Counted from the first letter of the stretch, positions 1 through 19,753 are shown. The stretch is DNA of 64,000 nucleotides from Gemmatimonadota bacterium (GCA_039588275.1 JBDHAC010000001.1:13203-77202), one strand, 5' to 3'. Notes: generated by a model from the sequence alone, not told the origin. A program made the numbers and translations.

Positions 1-1015
1 CGCGGCGCAACCGCGGCAGGGGGCAACGCGTCCCCGCTTGCCACGTCGGCGAGACGTCACCCTCCGCTCCATTTGCCCAGAGGTGCACCGAATGTGGGCG
101 CGGATCGTCCGGGTGCGGATCGGGGGCCTGCGGATCGTTCGGAAGCTTGGCCTCCGCGTCGATGAACCGCTCGAGCCGTCGGTTGACGTAGCCGTGCAGA
201 TCGGCCTCGTACAGGTCGTTGTTCGCCGGTATGATCGTCGGGTGAACGCCGAAGATGCTGAACGCGCCGGCCGGTACCCATTTCTCATCGCTCTGCCGCA
301 GCGTCTCGACGCGTAGCATGGTCCACGTACGATCCACCGCCAAACCGATGGGCGCCGGAAAGCCCGGCGGCGTCAGGCCCGTGTTCGCCAGGTAAGGCTC
401 GTAGCTCCGGTTCCGGCTCGCGCCCGTGATCAACGTGCTCCCCCACGCCGCGCGAGCAGGTTCCAGGTTAGCCGGGTGGAACGCGCTGTCGAGGGCGGTC
501 GCGATGCGCTCCGCGAAGAACGCCAACACGTTCTTGTCGAACCCTGCCAAGGAGGAGCCGACCTCGTTGAACGCGGCCGCGTCGAAGTAGTGCGAGGGCG
601 CGGCGTGCGTGTGCGTGGCGGCAAGCAAGAGCTCGTGGAACTCGAGCTTCGCCCCCTCCGCGAGCTTGACCGATTTGAGATGCAGCCCGGGCGAGATCGC
701 CTGTAGATCGGCGACCGCGAGCGCGAGGCGTTGCCCGTGGGCGTCCACGAGCGCGAGAACACGGACGTACAACCGCTGCCGGAAGCCACGAGCCTCTCGG
801 CCCTCCGGCCCGAAGCCCTGCAGGCCCAGCCCGGGTGGCGGGGTGATATCGACCCGCGCGAATCCCGCCTGCAGTACACCGGATTGCGCAGGAACGTGGC
901 GGACTCCAACGTCGGCGACGAACGCCTGTGCCGCCGCCCTCTCACCCCCGAAGGTCACGACCGCGAGCGCGCACGCAAGGAGGCTCGCGCCAAGCCGTCG
1001 CCGACTCCACTCCAC
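1..1015 (-). CDS. Neutral/alkaline ceramidase-like hydrolase, N-terminal part (gene continues beyond window start)
   Basis: Absent from the ORF track because it runs off the edge. My manual reverse translation from GTG 1015 is stop-free down to position 2. It reads VEWSRRRLGASLLACALAVVTF (signal-like), then GFGPEGREARGFRQRLYVRVLAL, LLLAATHTHAAPSHYF, FSIFGVHPT and ANGAEGDVSP. These resemble ceramidase N-domain blocks as I recall them. The listed ORFs 38..316 and 430..945 are wrong frames of this gene. Confidence 0.6.
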   Translation of the reverse strand, partial: MEWSRRRLGASLLACALAVVTFGGERAAAQAFVADVGVRHVPAQSGVLQAGFARVDITPPPGLGLQGFGPEGREARGFRQRLYVRVLALVDAHGQRLALAVADLQAISPGLHLKSVKLAEGAKLEFHELLLAATHTHAAPSHYFDAAAFNEVGSSLAGFDKNVLAFFAERIATALDSAFHPANLEPARAAWGSTLITGASRNRSYEPYLANTGLTPPGFPAPIGLAVDRTWTMLRVETLRQSDEKWVPAGAFSIFGVHPTIIPANNDLYEADLHGYVNRRLERFIDAEAKLPNDPQAPDPHPDDPRPHSVHLWANGAEGDVSPTWQAGTRCPLPRLRR

Positions 1016-2270: not shown

Positions 2271-3803
2271 ATGCCCGCTCCACCTTACATCATCCACACC
2301 GGCAAGGACGGGAAGCTGGTCGACATGGGCTCCGGCGATGTGCAGGACATCGTACAGGCGCTGGCCGCCAGCGGGACCGGCGTGCTTCATTTCCACGGCG
2401 GGCTGGTCAACCGGAACAAGGGGATCGCGCTCGCCGAGCGGCTCGATCCCGTCTATCGCCAGGCTCAGGCCGAGCCGGTGTTCTTCGTGTGGGAGTCCGG
2501 CTTCCTCGAGACCGTGACCCACAACCTGCACGAGATCGAGACGGAGAAGATCTTCCGGATCCTGCTGAAGAGGGTCCTGAAACACGTGGTGGGCAAGCTC
2601 ACCGCGGACGCCGGGCAAAAAGCCGCCGGTCAACTCCCCTACCCGAAAGATCCCGAGCTCGCGATCGAGCTCGACAAGCTGGAGGAGGGGACCGAGCCGT
2701 ATGTGGACCTGGAGGTTCCCGGCGACGTCGACGACACGACGGACCAGGAGCGTGAGAAGCTCGAGACCGAGCTGCGGCGCGACAACGACTTTCAGGCGGA
2801 GGCGCGCGCGATCGCGCGAGAGGCCTTGCCCGCGGTAGCCGAGGAGCTCGACGGCTCGAAGGGAGTCGTGGCCACGGGTAGAAAATCGGCGAAATCCCTC
2901 ATGTCGCGGGATGTCGTCGAGGAGCTCGAGGCCGACACCGAACAAGGCCAGAAAGGGCTGCTCACGACCGCCAAGCTCATCGCTCGGGCCGGCAAGATAC
3001 TCCTGAGGGTGATCCGGCGGCTGCGTACGGGCCGCGGGCACGGGGTCTACGTGACGACCGTCGAGGAGATCCTGCGCGAGCTGTACATCGCGAACATCGG
3101 CGGCGGCATCTGGCACATGATGAAGAAGGAAACCGCCGACACGTTCAGCGTCGGGGTGGACCGCGGCGGCCGCGTGTTCGTCGACGAGCTGGGAACCGCG
3201 CTCGCACAGGCGCAGCCCTCGTGGCCCGCGATCGACCTCGTCGGGCACAGCACGGGCGCCGTATACATCCTCAATCTCCTGAAGCACGTCGAGACATGCC
3301 GCGCCCATCACCTGTTCCCGGAAGACTTCTCGTTCCGAAGCGTCGTCTTTCTCGCACCGGCTTGCGACTTCGACGCGTTCGAAGAGGCGCTGGACGACCT
3401 TCGCCATCTGTTTGACGGTTTCCGGCTGTTCGCCATGCGCGATGAGCTGGAGAAGAAGGACAATCTCGTTCCCGGGCTCTATCCACGTTCCCTGCTCTAT
3501 TTCGTCTCGGGAGTGGTGGAGCGTGAGCCCGACGGGAGCACGTCGTTCGATCGCCCGATCCTCGGGATGGAGCGATACTTCCTCGATGCGGAGGTGTACG
3601 ATCAGATCGAGGTCGAGAAAGCTCGCCAGTTCCTCGCCGCGTCCGACCGTCACGCCGTCTGGTCGATAGCGGCCGATGGCGCCGATGGACTCCGGTCGAA
3701 TTCGAACAGGCACGGGGGCTTCGACGACACGGACCCGCAGGATCCCGCCAGGCACACCACGATGCTGAGCGTACAACACATGATCCGCCACGGGCCCGCA
3801 TGA
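2271..3803 (+). CDS. Alpha/beta hydrolase (DUF900-like esterase/lipase fold) with a ~200-aa charged helical insertion
   Basis: ORF of 510 aa. Motifs are VLHFHGGLV (HGG oxyanion-type), FFVWESG (compare the FSWPS block of DUF900), the nucleophile elbow DLVGHSTGAVY (Ser ~327 by my count, nt ~3249), VVFLAPACDFDAF (compare the APDxD block) and a late RHGGFDD His. About 240 aa of E/K/D/R-rich sequence separate the WESG block from the GHSTG elbow, roughly 200 aa more than I recall for DUF900. Confidence 0.75.
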   Translation: MPAPPYIIHTGKDGKLVDMGSGDVQDIVQALAASGTGVLHFHGGLVNRNKGIALAERLDPVYRQAQAEPVFFVWESGFLETVTHNLHEIETEKIFRILLKRVLKHVVGKLTADAGQKAAGQLPYPKDPELAIELDKLEEGTEPYVDLEVPGDVDDTTDQEREKLETELRRDNDFQAEARAIAREALPAVAEELDGSKGVVATGRKSAKSLMSRDVVEELEADTEQGQKGLLTTAKLIARAGKILLRVIRRLRTGRGHGVYVTTVEEILRELYIANIGGGIWHMMKKETADTFSVGVDRGGRVFVDELGTALAQAQPSWPAIDLVGHSTGAVYILNLLKHVETCRAHHLFPEDFSFRSVVFLAPACDFDAFEEALDDLRHLFDGFRLFAMRDELEKKDNLVPGLYPRSLLYFVSGVVEREPDGSTSFDRPILGMERYFLDAEVYDQIEVEKARQFLAASDRHAVWSIAADGADGLRSNSNRHGGFDDTDPQDPARHTTMLSVQHMIRHGPA

Positions 3804-4900
3804 ATCCGCTTCACTACGCCGTGGTCGTGGGAATCAACCACTACCCCGAGCTCGATCCGCTCGTATCGGCGGTCGGGGACGCGCAGAGATTCGCCGCCTG
3901 GCTGGAGAGCGAAGACGGCGGCGGCGTGCCGGCCGACAACATGAGACTCCTCACGGTGAGCAACGCCCAGATCCCGGCCGGCGTCGCGAGAGCGGACGCG
4001 ACGCCGAAGAAGACCGAGATCCATAACGCGCTGTACGAGCTGGCTCAAACCTGCAAGGCGCACGTCGATGAGCACCCCGCGGATTGGGAAAAGACGCGTC
4101 TGTACGTGTACGTGTCGGGGCACGGCCTGGCCCCGGTCTCGACCGAGGCCGCGCTCCTCATGGCGGATGCCGGACCCGACTGGTACGGAGAGAACTTCCC
4201 GTGCGCGAGCTTCGTGGGTTGGTACCAGGAGGCTCAGTACTTCAAGGAGCTGGTGTTCTTCGCCGACTGCTGTCGCTACTGGGTCGAGGAAGCACCGCTC
4301 GCCACGCCGCCCTGGACCAAGGTGCGCGGCAACAGCGGAAGGGTGATCCGGGTCACCGGCTACGCGACGTTCTTCGGCGATCCCGCCTACGAGCCCCCCG
4401 CCGAGGAGCTCGAGCCCGCCGACGAGCGGCGCAGCTATTTCACGAAGGCCCTGCTCGAGGGGTTGGAGGGCAAGGCGGCGGACGAGGGCTCGCGCGAGAT
4501 CGACTCCAACACGCTGGCGACGTATGTCCGAGCTCGGGTCATGGAGCTGACCCGCGGCAAGCGTTCGCCTCAGGAGCCGCAGATGGCCGCCGACCCGGCA
4601 ACTCCCATCCTGTTCGGGAAGTTGAGCGAGCCGGAGGCCGAGGAGGCGAAGAACGTGACCGTGACGATCCAGATCGTCACCCCATACGATGGTGACGTCG
4701 CGGTGCTGGACGGTTACTTCCAGCCCGTGGAGACGCGGGTCGCCTCGCCCGACCCCTGGGTCATCGAGCTTCCCGGCCCCCGAATGTATCAGGTGCATCC
4801 GCTCGAGCCCGATGGCACGGTCGATCCGGAGGCGCACAATCCTTTCACCGATGAGGGCCGCTTCAGCGTGGTTGGAGAGGACCGAAGTGTTGAGCTCTAG
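3800..4900 (+). CDS. Caspase-fold cysteine peptidase (Peptidase C14-like) with a C-terminal beta-sandwich-like tail
   Basis: ORF of 366 aa; its ATG overlaps the upstream stop (ATGA at 3800-3803). Motifs are YAVVVGINHYP..L..AVGDAQRFAAWL, YVYVSGHG (His ~108) and LVFFADCCRYW (Cys ~157/158), which together form the canonical caspase/metacaspase His-Cys dyad context. The last ~90 aa (NVTVTIQIVTPYDGDVAVLDGYF..) look beta-rich. Confidence 0.8.
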   Translation: MNPLHYAVVVGINHYPELDPLVSAVGDAQRFAAWLESEDGGGVPADNMRLLTVSNAQIPAGVARADATPKKTEIHNALYELAQTCKAHVDEHPADWEKTRLYVYVSGHGLAPVSTEAALLMADAGPDWYGENFPCASFVGWYQEAQYFKELVFFADCCRYWVEEAPLATPPWTKVRGNSGRVIRVTGYATFFGDPAYEPPAEELEPADERRSYFTKALLEGLEGKAADEGSREIDSNTLATYVRARVMELTRGKRSPQEPQMAADPATPILFGKLSEPEAEEAKNVTVTIQIVTPYDGDVAVLDGYFQPVETRVASPDPWVIELPGPRMYQVHPLEPDGTVDPEAHNPFTDEGRFSVVGEDRSVEL

Positions 4901-6488
4901 CGCTCGTGCGCGAGTCGAGCTCGCGACCCCCCAGGGGCCGCTCGAGCTGAAGCTGTACGATCACACGCATACGCTGGTTGCCAGCGGATTCGGCCAGATC
5001 GAGCGCTCGCTACGACCGGGCCTGTACCGGCTCGAGGTCCACGCGGGGTCGAGGACCGAGAAGCACTTCATCACCGTCGGACCGAGCGGGTTGGTCGACA
5101 GGGAGATCACGATCGACATGCCCTCCGCCGCGCCGATCGGCGGAACGAGCACCGTGCACGAGTTCCACGGCTACCCGGCCTCGCAATTGAGCCGCCAACC
5201 TCAGGGTGCCTTCGGATACGGGGGTCGGCTGGTGGTTTTCGTCCGGAACATGGGCGAGAACCCACAGGGCCCCGTGGATGTCGACTCCGTGTCGGTCTTC
5301 GACGCTCGAAACGCACCGCTGGGGACCGGGCTCGCGGACTTCCATCACAGCCCGGGCGAGGGATGGGCCGGCTTGAGCGTGGATGTCCAGCCCGGCGGGT
5401 ACATACTGCGCCAGACCCGGCCGCGTCGGGGACCGGGTGAGTACTCGGAGAAGACCGTCGACCAGTCGATCTGGGTGGCACAGGACTGGATAACCCTCGT
5501 CTTCGTGCCATTCCGTGACAAAGTCGGCTACCCCCAGCCCGAGTTCGCATCCGTGCACATGGCCAGGCACGAGCTCGGGTTCGATCCCTATGACCAGGAG
5601 ATGCAAGCCGCCAACGTGGCTCTGGAGATCGCCTTGTCGGGCCTGCGGGGCGGTCGCGCGAACGTGCCCCGTGATCTCGAGCAGCTCATGCTGCGGGGCA
5701 AGTTCGGGAACCCGATGCTCGGCATCGTGGGCGCGCTCGGCCTCCTGCATGCGGACAAGACCAACTGGCGGCTGTTCGACATCGTACGCCGGAACCTCAA
5801 GCGGCTCGTCCCGGAGCACCCCGACGTCCAGGCGCTGCACGTGATGGGCAAGCAGAAGCGGGAGGACGAGCGCGAATCACGCGTCCCGGCCGCGACGTGG
5901 CCGCCGATGCTGTACGCCTGCTACCGCGGGCTGATCGACCGCGATTCGGACGAAACACGCCGCCTCATCCCCGAGGGCTCGATCGCCGATCACGCCGCCT
6001 CCCGACTGCTGGCGCAGGGTCCCTGGACGCGGTGGCGCGCGATTCACGGCCCCGCCGAGGAAGCTCGGGACGAGCAATTGGACAAACGCATCAAGTCGGC
6101 GGTGGATCAGCTGCGGTCGATCGCGGCGCAAGAGGGTGAGACCGAGCTGGTGGCGCAATTGCGACATTCGTGGAATGAAGGCGTCGCCAAGCTGGATGTC
6201 AGCGTCGGCGATCGGCCACGCTCGACCCCGGCGACCGGCATCTCCGTGACCAAGGCGGCCGTCGAATCCATGACCCCGGGCACGACGGCGCCCGAGGCGG
6301 CCCCTCACGCCGAAACGCTGCGGGTCGCGAGCTACCTGGAGGGCCTCGCGGAGCAGGCGTCCAAATACAACCTGCCGATTCCCGAAGGGGCCTTCGACGT
6401 ACGCGAGATCAGTGACCAGGTCGGCTTGCCTCGAGCCACGGTGAAGCGGGCGCTCCGTGACCTCGTGGACGAGGGCCTCGAGTTCTGA
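4887..6488 (+). CDS. Hypothetical 533-aa protein: two PG-Y beta-sandwich-like modules, a helical core and a C-terminal winged-helix/HTH-like motif
   Basis: 3' part of ORF 4689..6488. GTG 4887 is preceded by GGAGAGG at 4874-4880 and overlaps the caspase gene by 14 nt. LRPGLYRLEVHAG and VQPGGYILRQT resemble carboxypeptidase-regulatory-like beta sandwiches. The C-terminus ISDQVGLPRATVKRALRDLVDEG is HTH-like. I saw no Walker A motif. Confidence 0.65.
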   Translation: MLSSSARARVELATPQGPLELKLYDHTHTLVASGFGQIERSLRPGLYRLEVHAGSRTEKHFITVGPSGLVDREITIDMPSAAPIGGTSTVHEFHGYPASQLSRQPQGAFGYGGRLVVFVRNMGENPQGPVDVDSVSVFDARNAPLGTGLADFHHSPGEGWAGLSVDVQPGGYILRQTRPRRGPGEYSEKTVDQSIWVAQDWITLVFVPFRDKVGYPQPEFASVHMARHELGFDPYDQEMQAANVALEIALSGLRGGRANVPRDLEQLMLRGKFGNPMLGIVGALGLLHADKTNWRLFDIVRRNLKRLVPEHPDVQALHVMGKQKREDERESRVPAATWPPMLYACYRGLIDRDSDETRRLIPEGSIADHAASRLLAQGPWTRWRAIHGPAEEARDEQLDKRIKSAVDQLRSIAAQEGETELVAQLRHSWNEGVAKLDVSVGDRPRSTPATGISVTKAAVESMTPGTTAPEAAPHAETLRVASYLEGLAEQASKYNLPIPEGAFDVREISDQVGLPRATVKRALRDLVDEGLEF

Positions 6489-6490
6489 GC

Positions 6491-7327
6491 GTGGGGGCTT
6501 CCGCACGCCCGAGCTCGGCCCGGTCGCACCTGATGCAGCTCGTGGTCGTGGCGATCGGTCCGACCTTGACCGCGTGTTCGGCCAACCCGCAGGTGAAGAT
6601 CGCCTCGACCGAGTTCACGGCGGCCCTGGGCGAGCTGAGGACGGCGAGCCGGGACTTCCGGAGCGTCTACACGGCAGAGATCCAAAAGACACGGGACGAC
6701 CTCCAGAACGCCATCGTGGCCCGGGCGCTCCGCTTGCGTGTGGAGCAGATCTCCGAGGATCTGGATGAGCGGGACTCGGAGTTCGCCTCTCGCGGCCTCA
6801 TCTCGCTCGCCGAAGAGCTGGCGCAGACCGAAGAGGAGTACAGGAAGCTCACCGAGCTGGTAGCCAGCGTCACCCTGAGGCGCGAAGACCGTCCGGAGGG
6901 CGGCGTGGAGCGGGCCCTCGAGGCGCAGGCGGCAGCGGCGCGGACGACCGCCGAACAGCTACGGGGACTGAACCCGGCGGCCGCCGAGGAGCTCGAGAAC
7001 CGCGCCCGGGAGCTGGAGGAGAGAAGGAACCTCGACTTTCTCGAGGACGCCAGGATCGGCGCCTACATCGATGCGCTCCTCGAGCTGGGCGCCGCCGCCT
7101 CCGAGGCCGGCGCCAACCTCCGGCAGCTCGACGCGCTCATCCGCGTGCTGCAGGAGACGCACTCGGTCATCCACGCGTGGATCATGACGGACGTCAGCGT
7201 CTCCGGCGAACAGCTCGCGGATCTGTTCGAGGAGCATGCGGAGGCGCTCGGCCTGACCCTCGGCGCCGACCCCGATGACCCGTCAAGCCCCAGCGGCGAC
7301 GGCGGTGCGGAAGGCGGCCCCCGATGA
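6491..7327 (+). CDS. Coiled-coil lipoprotein, unknown function
   Basis: ORF of 278 aa with GTG 2 nt after the upstream stop. The signal has a lipobox (..VVVAIGPTLTAC|S). The remainder is long E/A/R/L-rich helical sequence with a Pro/Gly/Asp-rich C-terminal tail. Confidence 0.65.
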   Translation: MGASARPSSARSHLMQLVVVAIGPTLTACSANPQVKIASTEFTAALGELRTASRDFRSVYTAEIQKTRDDLQNAIVARALRLRVEQISEDLDERDSEFASRGLISLAEELAQTEEEYRKLTELVASVTLRREDRPEGGVERALEAQAAAARTTAEQLRGLNPAAAEELENRARELEERRNLDFLEDARIGAYIDALLELGAAASEAGANLRQLDALIRVLQETHSVIHAWIMTDVSVSGEQLADLFEEHAEALGLTLGADPDDPSSPSGDGGAEGGPR

Positions 7328-8007
7328 GACGCGCCGGGTGGCGGATTCTCCCGGTGGCGTTCGTGGCGGTCGCCGCCACGGCCTGCGCTTCGACGGCGAC
7401 GCGAGAGCTCACGGTCATGGAGCTCCAGCTGCTCGACACGCTCCAGGCCCGCATCGATACGAACGGCGACGCGCTGGATGGCGTCCTCTCGGACCTGTTG
7501 GAGATCTCGCGCGAAGCCCTCGCGGACCAGCACGCGCTGACCGCCAGCATCGCCAGGGCACAGCTGCTCGAATCGATGAGATCGCCTTGGCTGGTGCAGC
7601 GCGAAGAGGGGACGCTGGCGATCACCCAGCGCGAGGTCGCGCTCTATCACCTGTATTCGCTCCACGAGGCCCAGCGCGAGCTGCTATCGGCCAAGGTGGA
7701 GGAGCGACGCGCGGCGTTGGACGAGGTCGAGGCGGCTCACGCCCGGCTCCGATCGCTCGTCCGCGAGTTGATAAAGGCCGAGAAGGTCATTCTGGCGCAC
7801 CTCGAGCAACCCCGCGGGGCGCAGATCCGGTCTCTCCTCACCGGCCTGCTCGGCGAGGCCACGGCCTTTCGCGAAGCGCTCGCCGAATCCGACGACCCGA
7901 GGCTTCAGGAGCTGAGCGAGCGGGTAAAGAGCGCGCAGGAGCGGGTTGAGCGCGTGCAGACGTTGGTCGAACGGGCGCTTGAAGCCGCACGGTCGGGAGG
8001 GAGTTAG
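7324..8007 (+). CDS. Coiled-coil lipoprotein, unknown function
   Basis: ORF of 227 aa with an ATGA overlap on the upstream gene (7324-7327). Signal plus lipobox is MRRAGWRILPVAFVAVAATAC|A, followed by helical E/L/A/R-rich sequence. Confidence 0.65.
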   Translation: MRRAGWRILPVAFVAVAATACASTATRELTVMELQLLDTLQARIDTNGDALDGVLSDLLEISREALADQHALTASIARAQLLESMRSPWLVQREEGTLAITQREVALYHLYSLHEAQRELLSAKVEERRAALDEVEAAHARLRSLVRELIKAEKVILAHLEQPRGAQIRSLLTGLLGEATAFREALAESDDPRLQELSERVKSAQERVERVQTLVERALEAARSGGS

Positions 8008-8012
8008 AAACG

Positions 8013-8513
8013 GTGAGCCTGGAAGACTCGATCGCCAAGCTGAGGGACGTCGGATCGGACGCCAGGGGGCTGTTCGATGTCCTCAAGGACCTCGCTGACC
8101 AGGGTCGGAAGGCCCGTCAGACCGAGAAGGACAAGATCACCCGCCTCGTGAAGAAGCTGGACACGACGACCCGCACCGCCGCACGCGAGCGTCGCGCGGC
8201 CGAGATCGAGAAGCTCACGGAGCTCATCGATGCGGGGGAAACCGTCCTCTCGATCACCGGTCTGTCGTCGTCCACGCGGAACGCGGTGAAGGCGGATTTG
8301 ACTCGCCGGCGTGCCCGCCGCACGCGGCTCCGAAACCTGGACGCGACGGACTTCGGCGGGATCCTGAAAGCGGACGAAGTCAGACAGCTGGAGGACCTCG
8401 TGAAAGCGGCGAGGAAAGAGGTCGAGCAGAAGAAGCTGGCCGCCGCCTTCCTCGGGTCGGTGTTCAAGATCGGCGACCTGGCGCTCACGATGGCGGGCAA
8501 GCTCGCGATCTGA
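8013..8513 (+). CDS. Small helical protein with a hydrophobic/amphipathic C-terminal helix, unknown function
   Basis: ORF of 166 aa. GTG 8013 lies 5 nt after the upstream stop, with GGGAGGGAG ~8 nt upstream. GC3 is high in this frame. The body is K/R/E-rich and the C-terminus is ..KKLAAAFLGSVFKIGDLALTMAGKLAI. Confidence 0.6.
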   Translation: MSLEDSIAKLRDVGSDARGLFDVLKDLADQGRKARQTEKDKITRLVKKLDTTTRTAARERRAAEIEKLTELIDAGETVLSITGLSSSTRNAVKADLTRRRARRTRLRNLDATDFGGILKADEVRQLEDLVKAARKEVEQKKLAAAFLGSVFKIGDLALTMAGKLAI

Positions 8514-8567
8514 CCGCCTGCCTCGTTCCCGCTCGTCGCTCGGCTTCACGGGAAGCCCCAGCCGGGT

Positions 8568-8918
8568 CTACTCCTCGGGGTCGGGCTTCTTTCGCGTCCG
8601 CTTGAGCTCCGAGCGGCGCCGCTTCTCCTCCCGCCGCCGCCGCCTCTCACCCGGCGGGACCCCGGTGGGAATCCGCGGGACTTCGGGGCGAACGAGCTCG
8701 TCGAGCGCGGCCCGCAGTCGAACGAGTGCAGCCCTCCGGTTCCGGTGCTGGCTGCGTGACTCGCGGGCGGTGACCGAGATGCCGGTGGGCAGGTGCGTCA
8801 GCCGCACGCCCGAATCCGTGGTGTTCTGGTGCTGGCCACCCGGACCACCGGACCGGAAGGTCTCCACCCGGCACTCGGCCAGGAGCGCTTCATCCCCGGC
8901 GGGAGGCTCATAGCTCAC
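8568..8918 (-). CDS. arfB: Peptidyl-tRNA hydrolase ArfB (alternative ribosome-rescue factor, RF-1 domain)
   Basis: ORF of 116 aa with a GGQ motif ([22 protein letters not shown]), [12 protein letters not shown] and a strongly basic C-terminal tail. This is the typical ArfB/YaeJ layout. Confidence 0.85.
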
Positions 8919-18853: not shown

Positions 18854-19753
18854 ATGGAGTACGTGAAGTACCTCGCGTTCTCCACTTTCACGCCGTCCTT
18901 CCCCCAGATCATCCAGATCCAGACCAAGTACGGGTGCAACGCCCGCTGCGTCTTCTGCCCGATGGGGCGAGAGCAGAACCAGATCCAGGGACTGATGGAT
19001 GATGTCACTTTCCAGCGGATCGTGGATGAAGCGGTCGAGAACCGGGTGAAGGTGTTGAGCCCCTACCTGCAGAACGATCCGCTCGTAGACCGCCGGATCC
19101 ACGAACGCGTCGCCTACATTCGCGAACGACGCGGCCGCAAGCGCCTGCCGCGGACGAAGCTGATCACGAACGGGGCCCTGCTGACCGAAGACAGGGCCTA
19201 TAATCTGATTCGTTCCGGTCTCGAGCACATCGTTTTCAGCGTGCACGGAATCGACCCGCAGGTCTACGAGGACCTCATGCAGGGCCCTCGGTTCTCGCGA
19301 ACGCTCGAGAACATCGAGACGTTCGTGCGCGTTCGAGATGAGCTGAAATCGAGGACGCCCAAGACCCAGGTATGGGCGGTTCTCACCGAGGATGTGGAAC
19401 GGCAGCTGGACGACGTCGGTAAGTTCTGGAAGGAGCGCGGCATCTCCTTCAAGGCACGCCCACTCGACAATCGGGCACATCCGGAGATCACGGAGAACAC
19501 CGACCTGGTCGAGGCCGACGACGGGTGGCGGTATGCGACGTGGTGTACCATCCCCTTCTGGAGGGCCTGGATCCTCTGGAACGGAGACGTGGTCCTGTGC
19601 TGCGTCGACTGGGAGCGCAAGCACGTCTTCGGAAACATCCACGAGAATTCGATCCGCGAGATCTGGAACAGCGACGCCTACGAGAAGTACCGCGAGCGGA
19701 TGCGGAAGAACGACTTCGCGGGGACTCTGTGTGAAAACTGTCAGGGAGTTTGA
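18854..19753 (+). CDS. Radical SAM enzyme with a C-terminal SPASM/twitch-type Cys cluster
   Basis: ORF 18758..19753; the start is uncertain (18758, 18782 or 18854). It has the CxxxCxxC motif YGCNARCVFCP and a C-terminal Cys-rich region WCTIP..VVLCCVDW..GTLCENC. Confidence 0.75.
   Translation: MEYVKYLAFSTFTPSFPQIIQIQTKYGCNARCVFCPMGREQNQIQGLMDDVTFQRIVDEAVENRVKVLSPYLQNDPLVDRRIHERVAYIRERRGRKRLPRTKLITNGALLTEDRAYNLIRSGLEHIVFSVHGIDPQVYEDLMQGPRFSRTLENIETFVRVRDELKSRTPKTQVWAVLTEDVERQLDDVGKFWKERGISFKARPLDNRAHPEITENTDLVEADDGWRYATWCTIPFWRAWILWNGDVVLCCVDWERKHVFGNIHENSIREIWNSDAYEKYRERMRKNDFAGTLCENCQGV

Follow-up and report, generated by a model that had tools for sequence, protein, structure and literature searches.

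A mobile gene cassette in a Gemmatimonadota bacterium that may couple a MALT1-like caspase to a candidate hydrolase zymogen and an adaptor-like third protein

Effectors gated by proteases have only lately emerged as a major logic of bacterial immunity, and how far they parallel caspase and MALT1 signalling is a matter of debate. [quoted passage not shown] In the Canu system (CanABC) of Klebsiella aerogenes, the MALT1-like CanA, which carries an Ig-like tail, is described as copurifying with its partner CanB and activating a pro-nuclease (Tuck et al., Science 2025, PMC12799240). In NTP-dependent ternary conflict systems, an alpha/beta-hydrolase gene is described as always neighbouring the caspase domain (Kaur et al. 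2020, PMC7159879), and in MALT1 itself the Ig3 domain, which directly follows the caspase domain, is reported to be autoinhibitory (PMC4357240). Here we describe a cassette of three genes, A, B and C, that lies in a stretch of 64,000 nucleotides (nt) from a Gemmatimonadota bacterium (GCA_039588275.1 JBDHAC010000001.1:13203-77202; hereafter the window, positions being counted from its first letter). The cassette encodes an alpha/beta-hydrolase (A), a caspase-like protease (B) and an adaptor-like protein (C), recurs across many bacterial phyla and, by analogy, closely resembles recently described modules for defence against phages, whose cell-killing enzyme is switched on by a protease. We lean, by a small step, towards reading it as a protease-gated hydrolase module, in which B, controlled by C, would cut A at K197 and K228.

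The protease B and the neighbouring hydrolase A

Gene B (3800-4900, + strand) encodes a caspase-like protein of 366 amino acids (aa), which a preliminary description of this DNA had singled out as a stand-alone caspase-fold peptidase with an intact catalytic dyad. Both the fold and the dyad are borne out. Pfam PF00656 (Peptidase_C14) matches residues 6-261 with 37.4 bits, the gathering cut-off being 21.4, and the caspase (paracaspase-like) domain (residues 1-273, 3800..4618) has the caspase/hemoglobinase fold and superposes on MALT1 (1..273 to 339..561). The AlphaFold2 model of B has a predicted local distance difference test (pLDDT) of 94.3 and a predicted template modelling score of 0.90. 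When this model was searched with Foldseek, the best matches were caspase-Ig3 chains of human MALT1, the top one being 4i1p_C (E 4.5e-11, 365 columns, root-mean-square deviation (rmsd) 15.9 Å); since the whole-length rmsd is about 16 Å, caspase domain and tail are oriented differently in B and MALT1. Searched against the Protein Data Bank (PDB), the profile of the B family gave few and weak matches (E about 0.006), and in its weak alignment to MALT1 (E 0.006) the active-site motifs are in register, SGHG facing AGHG, DCCR facing DMCR and AyE facing AFE.

The family was assembled by a word-indexed search, confined to protein lengths of 201-641 aa, which returned 88 relatives, the first 59 at E <= 3.8e-50 and with lengths of 300-385 aa; 85 of them were aligned, the short P0039, P0060 and P0088 being left out. 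Seven residues are invariant in this alignment (D27, G107, H108, G109, D156, C158 and R159), and conservation reaches at least 90% at C157 and E198. The dyad residues, for which alignment with catalytic positions had been set as a test, are His108 (nt 4121-4123, + strand, in YVYVSGHG) and Cys158 (nt 4271-4273), both invariant and at the canonical positions marked by AGHG and DMCR in MALT1. The histidine had been placed correctly at 4121; the position formerly given for the cysteine, 4268, belongs to Cys157, the other member of the pair in FFADCCRYW (nt 4268-4273), and is to be replaced by that of the invariant Cys158.

In MALT1, the pocket that accepts arginine at P1 is formed by Asp365, Asp462 and Glu500 (PMC4357240, clan CD review). 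D156 and E198 of B (4265-4267 and 4391-4393, + strand) align with the D of DMCR (Asp462) and the E of AFE (Glu500), and the invariant D27 (3878-3880), at the start of helix 1, would be the equivalent of Asp365 provided that no gap interrupts the alignment at its N-terminal end. With this last residue taken as a candidate, B has the acidic S1 pocket of the paracaspase/metacaspase branch (C14B), and it is predicted to cut after Arg or Lys because its S1 residues correspond to the Arg pocket of MALT1. Judged by its sequence, B is a protease of the paracaspase-like kind whose active site is intact. It falls well short of the NCBIfam model for EACC1-associated caspases (NF047832; 46.3 bits against a cut-off of 140), no EACC1 gene lies nearby, and, as had been noted before, B carries no sensor repeats.

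Directly upstream, gene A (2271-3803, + strand) encodes a 510-aa alpha/beta-hydrolase that is a putative zymogen effector; its TGA stop codon and the ATG start codon of B share the tetranucleotide ATGA. In an alignment of 36 homologues out of 120 listed, H42, G43, G44, H326, S327, G329, E394 and H481 are invariant, and A has the motifs that define the alpha/beta-hydrolases, namely the oxyanion motif HGG (residues 42-44), a GxSxG nucleophile elbow (GHSTG, with Ser327 at nt 3249-3251) and a catalytic histidine (His481, nt 3711-3713). The window protein itself falls below the Pfam cut-offs (Abhydrolase_6, 19.7 against 26.3 bits; DUF900, 15.4 against 20.5); its Dyadobacter homologue passes DUF900 (23.8 against 20.5), several other homologues carry a precomputed PF05990 assignment, and the nearest ESM Atlas clusters are DUF900 hydrolases. 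A search of the PDB with the A profile gave a sole match, to the serine hydrolase 1vkh, which is weak (E 0.0054) and located at the elbow.

The HGG strand and the nucleophile strand of A are about 200 residues apart; within this interval, residues 111-235 or so form the most variable stretch of the protein. If a basic-Gly position is counted as conserved when K or R reaches at least 80% and the next residue is G in at least 80%, A has just two, and both lie inside this variable stretch: K/R197-G198, conserved at 0.94/0.92 in the 36 sequences, and K/R228-G229, at 0.97/0.92. No K/R-G dipeptide is conserved in B (85 sequences) or in C (29 sequences). The two putative cleavage sites, K197-G198 (nt 2859-2864) and K228-G229 (nt 2952-2957), would delimit a candidate excised segment at 2859..2957 on the + strand. 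Gene A, as the likely substrate, is probably a more telling partner of B than is C, the gene to which attention had been drawn before, A having come up there solely as an option for modelling.

Recurrence and mobility of the cassette

A scan for B relatives in one genome per species yielded 98 stretches, of which 80 were kept, in 68 loci; the loci were searched with the six proteins encoded in this part of the window (A, B, C and the products of three downstream genes, D, E and F), and the survey was completed by hhalign, a plasmid match and a metagenome contig. A B relative is present in 24 loci (L002-L022 and L067, at E <= 1e-14, together with L070 and L073). A C-like gene adjoins B in all 23 of these that can be assessed (L015 ends inside B), and an A homologue adjoins B in 18 of 22 (L006 and L014 begin too near B). 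Far from being a stand-alone curiosity, B thus belongs to a conserved A-B-C cassette. The overlap between B and C, of 11-14 nt in the window, is repeated at about 14 nt in loci from Brocadia and Chloroflexota (Anaerolineaceae), and the pairwise-distance matrices of the three proteins correlate strongly over 13 cassettes (r 0.94 for A-B, 0.88 for B-C and 0.95 for A-C; L018 dropped), correlations reached in none of 2000 permutations. Hosts include Brocadia, Anaerolineae, Thalassospiraceae, Opitutus, Verrucomicrobiales, Gaiellaceae, Streptomyces, Dyadobacter, Phaeobacter and a Mesorhizobium plasmid, so that the cassette is spread over Planctomycetota, Chloroflexota, Verrucomicrobiota, Actinomycetota, Bacteroidota and Pseudomonadota as well as a rhizobial plasmid.

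The four assessable loci without an A homologue are L012, L019, L020 and L021. In L020, another hydrolase-like gene stands in the place of A (Pfam Hydrolase_4 below cut-off; hhalign probability to A 3.9%). L012 (6388-10416, from a Gaiellaceae metagenome-assembled genome) has B and C without an A homologue, and the 538-aa open reading frame (ORF) abutting B on its upstream side probably represents an antisense shadow; it was rejected as a gene, having a third-position GC content of 0.65 against 0.87 in another frame, no family assignment and an hhalign probability to A of 0.2%. More distant caspase matches (L024-L037) were likewise rejected as kin of the cassette, since they are ordinary fused forms without A or C alongside; the six that were checked comprise a WD40-caspase, a caspase-TPR protein, two caspase-FGE-sulfatase proteins and two 652-aa proteins with long non-caspase extensions. 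The two FGE-sulfatase fusions are encoded at L027:7857-11525 and L037:7827-10319, and the former adjoins bAvd and a reverse transcriptase, the arrangement seen in a diversity-generating retroelement whose target protein bears a caspase. In Dyadobacter, the gene directly after A-B-C (L016:10767-13358) encodes an 864-aa protein with a second Peptidase_C14 domain (63.4 bits) and a subtilase S8 domain (71.8 bits), which could represent a protease cascade; a TraG-like fragment and DUF5677 and DUF4238 genes lie near this locus.

The cassette is an accessory, horizontally mobile element. B occurs in one of 145 genomes of the window's order, the window's own, and is absent from the other 144, including all 75 that are at least 90% complete; genes A and E were not found in two genomes of the same genus (84% and 91% complete). 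Synteny with a congener (L071) runs from about nt 19750 of the window down to about 8734 and ends there, the break at about 8560-8740 coinciding with the end of an ArfB-like gene (8568-8918), and no counterpart of the sequence left of about nt 8734 was found at the congener's locus, nor any of the further 13 kb between the window and the end of the contig on which it lies. The variable region left of this break therefore spans at least 21 kb. Elsewhere, a DDE transposase adjoins the cassette in L004, and an IS21 element (istA/istB) lies 0.9 kb upstream of it in L070.

The third protein and the tail of the protease

Gene C (4887/4890-6488, + strand) consists of a core and a variable C-terminal part. 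Its start is probably the TTG at 4890, 11 nt inside B, because a ggagag motif at 4874-4879, the 532-aa protein on record and the homologues, which begin with MSSS, agree on it. The constant core (4890..6044, 385 aa) comprises a beta-sandwich module (module 1, residues 3-76), a linker (residues 77-105 or so, window positions about 5118-5204), a larger beta sandwich (module 2, about residues 108-228) and a TPR-like helical domain (about residues 236-385). The variable part (6045..6488) adds helices, a disordered linker (residues 440-471) and a winged-helix-type helix-turn-helix domain (about nt 6399-6479; HTH_IclR, 23.4 bits against a cut-off of 22). The model of C has a pLDDT of 86.8, with disorder confined to residues 1-3 and 440-471 (pLDDT below 50 in the latter). 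The linker between the sandwiches, PSAAP..GTST.HE.H..PA..LS, is among the best conserved motifs of C and is modelled as a loop followed by a helix (residues 91-102); it may serve as a docking peptide for B.

C belongs to a large family that has so far stood outside the family libraries, there being no Pfam family for its core. A full hidden Markov model search with the C alignment through 1.84 billion representatives matched 2,675 cluster representatives at E <= 1e-3 (1,501 of them also at E <= 1e-30), the match usually spanning the first 385-510 profile positions. Beyond the core, the C-terminus is exchanged among relatives for a winged helix, a transmembrane segment with an ASH Ig domain, a phospholipase D (PLD)-like domain, Trypsin_2 with Endonuclease_NS, RRM or HATPase_c/GAF. 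When 23 long forms were scanned against Pfam, ASH/HYDIN-type Ig domains were found in four, and Trypsin_2 with Endonuclease_NS, HATPase_c/GAF, RRM_1 and DUF11 in one each; the other 15 had no Pfam family at E <= 0.001 anywhere in the protein. A swappable end on a constant core usually marks an adaptor, a protein linking one module to varied sensors or outputs, and it is because its constant core is joined to exchangeable C-termini that we read C as an adaptor. Two proteins with the C core deserve mention in their own right. The metagenomic protein P0262 (1346 aa) joins the C core to Trypsin_2 (residues 690-843) and a DNA/RNA non-specific endonuclease (residues 1027-1312), such that a second protease and a nuclease are carried by the adaptor-like protein itself. 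On plasmid pOM4 of Mesorhizobium onobrychidis (L070:6097-10915), a 1449-aa C protein annotated as phospholipase D-like matches the C core over residues 1-368 with 100% probability, and a trypsin-like peptidase gene follows it.

The tail of B (residues 285-366; 4652..4900 with the stop codon, + strand), which had been described as beta-rich and Ig-like, is real: the high-confidence model shows a seven-stranded beta-sandwich (strands 285-291, 299-303, 309-314, 320-325, 328-334, 354-357 and 362-365), it is conserved along its whole length across the B family, and it directly follows the caspase domain, as in the caspase-Ig3 arrangement of MALT1. Its resemblance to the two N-terminal modules of C, also proposed earlier, was found for one of them. 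In profile-profile comparisons with hhalign, the tail matched module 1 with a probability of 89.4% (E 2.1e-6, 45 columns) and module 2 with only 14%, modules 1 and 2 matched each other at 94.4%, and five controls against caspase or helical domains stayed at or below 0.6%. The resemblance to module 1 is accordingly real, and common ancestry of the B tail and the N-terminal module of C is supported by these profiles. Module 1 in turn matches the transthyretin-like, CarboxypepD_reg and CnaB sandwiches, and from this homologous module we infer a fold of the same kind for the B tail; 'Ig-like' would thus apply to it in the broad sense of a seven-stranded sandwich and not in that of the classical Ig fold. 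Pfam returned nothing at E < 0.1 for the isolated B tail, either C module or the C helical domain. A literature search found nothing on the C family or on the homology of tail and C, with the limit that the supplements of the Evans et al. and Canu papers, which might contain similar loci, lay outside it.

A heteromeric interaction of B and C through these like domains had also been suggested, and modelling of the complex gave a weak pass. Three runs of B with residues 1-390 of C reached an ipSAE of 0.57 (0.59, 0.56 and 0.57) against 0.00 for the best of three controls, with at least 87% agreement of contacts and a partner pLDDT of at least 83, a result scored as weak support. In the calibration, 116 of 157 solved complexes passed the mark, as did 2 of 215 mismatches; both of these mismatches, but only 18 of the 157 complexes, passed it at values of 0.60 or lower. 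Because B and C adjoin in 23 of 23 loci, their genes overlap, the model passed weakly and CanA and CanB offer a precedent, we rate binding of C by B as fairly likely.

A broader proposal, which we regard as possible but doubtful, is that the C core is a universal adaptor that docks MALT1-like caspases, the B tail pairing with module 1 as a prokaryotic counterpart of the Ig3-mediated control of MALT1, and that it couples the pair of caspase and hydrolase zymogen to interchangeable sensors or outputs (winged helix, RRM, ASH Ig, PLD, trypsin with endonuclease). If this were true, it would amount to a wiring of protease-gated cell death that is free of nucleoside triphosphatases (NTPases) and distinct from the STAND-, vWA- and CRISPR-linked versions.

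Readings of the cassette and comparison with known systems

Within the window, the cassette is followed by D (6491-7327, 278 aa), E (7324-8007, 227 aa) and F (8013-8513, 166 aa), so that six close-packed genes lie on the + strand, D, E and F being spaced by 2, -4 and 5 nt. D and E appear from their sequences to begin with lipoprotein-like signals (..LTAC.. and ..ATAC..), and both look coiled-coil; none of the three reached a family cut-off in Pfam, PADLOC or NCBIfam. They were rejected as members of the cassette, having matched in none of the 69 loci searched, nor in L073 or L074; in L073, where B is 55% identical, the gene that comes after A-B-C lies on the opposite strand. A scan for promoters and terminators found no promoter-like sequence and four terminator-like ones (2.4 expected), none at a gene end. 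To the left of the window, 13 kb are occupied by ordinary genes (ApaG, VanY, MarR, DoxX, NosD-like, LtrA, EEP, amidohydrolase, ceramidase) without an integrase, and the flanks of seven other loci are mostly housekeeping genes that vary from locus to locus.

As we picture it, A-B-C would be of the conflict or abortive-infection type, a protease-effector module that is self-contained and horizontally mobile. B would be an Arg/Lys-specific, MALT1-like cysteine protease that its tail and its partner C hold assembled and in check, and C an adaptor or sensor whose constant core bears an exchangeable C-terminus, here a winged-helix domain presumed to bind DNA. We infer that, upon a trigger sensed through C, B would cleave A after exactly Lys197 and Lys228, that loss of the 31-residue, putatively inhibitory segment would turn A into an active serine hydrolase harming the cell, and that the outcome would be defence; an ester or a lipid is our best guess for the substrate of the activated enzyme.

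Several observations weigh against this picture. PADLOC recognised no system in the cassette; B matched its generic 'caspase' model (4.1e-10), and the matches of the other genes were at chance level. A defence-island context, too, is not supported because the left 13 kb and the flanks of most of the seven other loci consist of ordinary or housekeeping genes. An A homologue is missing from four of the 22 assessable loci, and the co-variation of A, B and C may come partly from shared host descent. The basic residue at both sites of A is mostly Lys (27 of 36), against Arg in LcHydrolase and the Arg specificity of MALT1, and A, at 510 aa, is set beside an LcHydrolase of about 33 kDa (its three fragments summed), a likening made by description from the preprint. 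Finally, the complex model of B and C passed only weakly.

The alternatives distribute the roles of the three proteins differently. In one, C is the main substrate and output: B would cut the C linker and free the variable C-terminal domain (in the window, the winged helix) as an effector or regulator, A being an accessory enzyme. The pairing of B with C is indeed tighter than that of A with B (23 of 23 against 18 of 22 loci), C has a disordered linker at residues 440-471, nucleases that look like effectors (PLD-like, Endonuclease_NS) occur among its C-terminal domains elsewhere, and B and C gave the modelling pass just discussed (0.57 against 0.00). However, no K/R-G dipeptide is conserved in the 29 C sequences and the linker at 440-471 is itself unconserved, most of the long forms (15 of 23) have no Pfam match while other extensions look suited to binding (ASH Ig, RRM) and not to effector action, and it is A that has an invariant catalytic set and paired sites; we consider this reading unlikely. 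Less weight still is given to B as an executioner or regulator that works independently of an effector, degrading many host or phage proteins, a behaviour described for some bacterial caspases, with A acting in parallel and not as its substrate. The effector-less caspase-like protease reported to protect E. coli (bioRxiv 10.1101/2025.11.14.688446) offers a parallel, as do the four loci without A; against it stand the adjacency of A in the other 18, the ATGA overlap, the A-B co-variation (r 0.94) and the two conserved K/R-G sites in A, which together make it quite improbable.

A role outside conflict altogether would see A to F as a six-gene operon for housekeeping or envelope functions, its lipoprotein-like products taking part in lipid or envelope remodelling. 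D begins 2 nt after C, D to F are close-packed on the same strand, D and E have lipoprotein-like signals and the flanking genes are ordinary, all of which would suit such an operon. Set against this, D, E and F have no match at the other cassette loci, an opposite-strand gene follows the cassette in L073, and A, B and C show no signal peptides on reading their sequences; a housekeeping role also fits poorly because the cassette is absent from all 144 other genomes of the order. We hold this reading to be very improbable.

If cleavage of A by B is the logic of the cassette, as we slightly favour, it would add to the protease-gated systems a compact version without an NTPase, a large hydrolase family with two predicted Lys/Arg-Gly cut sites that are directly testable, and a very widespread third protein, hitherto outside the family libraries, with an N-terminal module homologous to the tail of the caspase itself. 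Should B and C pair through these modules, they would also provide a simple model of how an Ig-like appendage controls a paracaspase-type enzyme.

Compared with the systems outlined at the start, the cassette shares its features with several without coinciding with any. As in the pair of LcHydrolase and LcCaspase, the gene for a caspase-like cysteine protease stands next to that for an alpha/beta-hydrolase of unknown substrate, and, as in LcHydrolase, two conserved basic-Gly sites lie upstream of the catalytic core, with a small middle fragment predicted to be removed; the sites are mostly Lys-Gly at 197 and 228 in A, whereas those given for LcHydrolase are Arg-Gly at 73 and 117. The proteases that Evans et al. 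describe are fused to WD40 or STAND sensors, in contrast to B with its beta-sandwich tail and the separate C protein. [quoted passage not shown] B resembles human MALT1, its best structural match, in the DxCR motif, the acidic S1 triad and the beta-sandwich right after the caspase domain, and differs from it in being only 18% identical, in having no death domain, Ig1 or Ig2, in the orientation of its domains and in a tail that, by homology, appears transthyretin/CnaB-like. The caspase-superfamily domain with a neighbouring alpha/beta-hydrolase gene recalls the systems of Kaur et al., which are described as built on components of the MoxR/vWA/VMAP, STAND or GTPase kinds; A to F and the 13-kb left flank gave no match to such families, and no NTPase or vWA gene was found in or beside the cassette. 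With typical bacterial orthocaspases and metacaspases, B has in common the Peptidase_C14 domain and the His-Cys dyad, while these are fused to sensor repeats and B instead has a beta tail, with A and C alongside. By analogy with the systems so described, the cassette in the window appears to join the hydrolase logic of LcHydrolase to the caspase-and-partner architecture of Canu, without an NTPase sensor.

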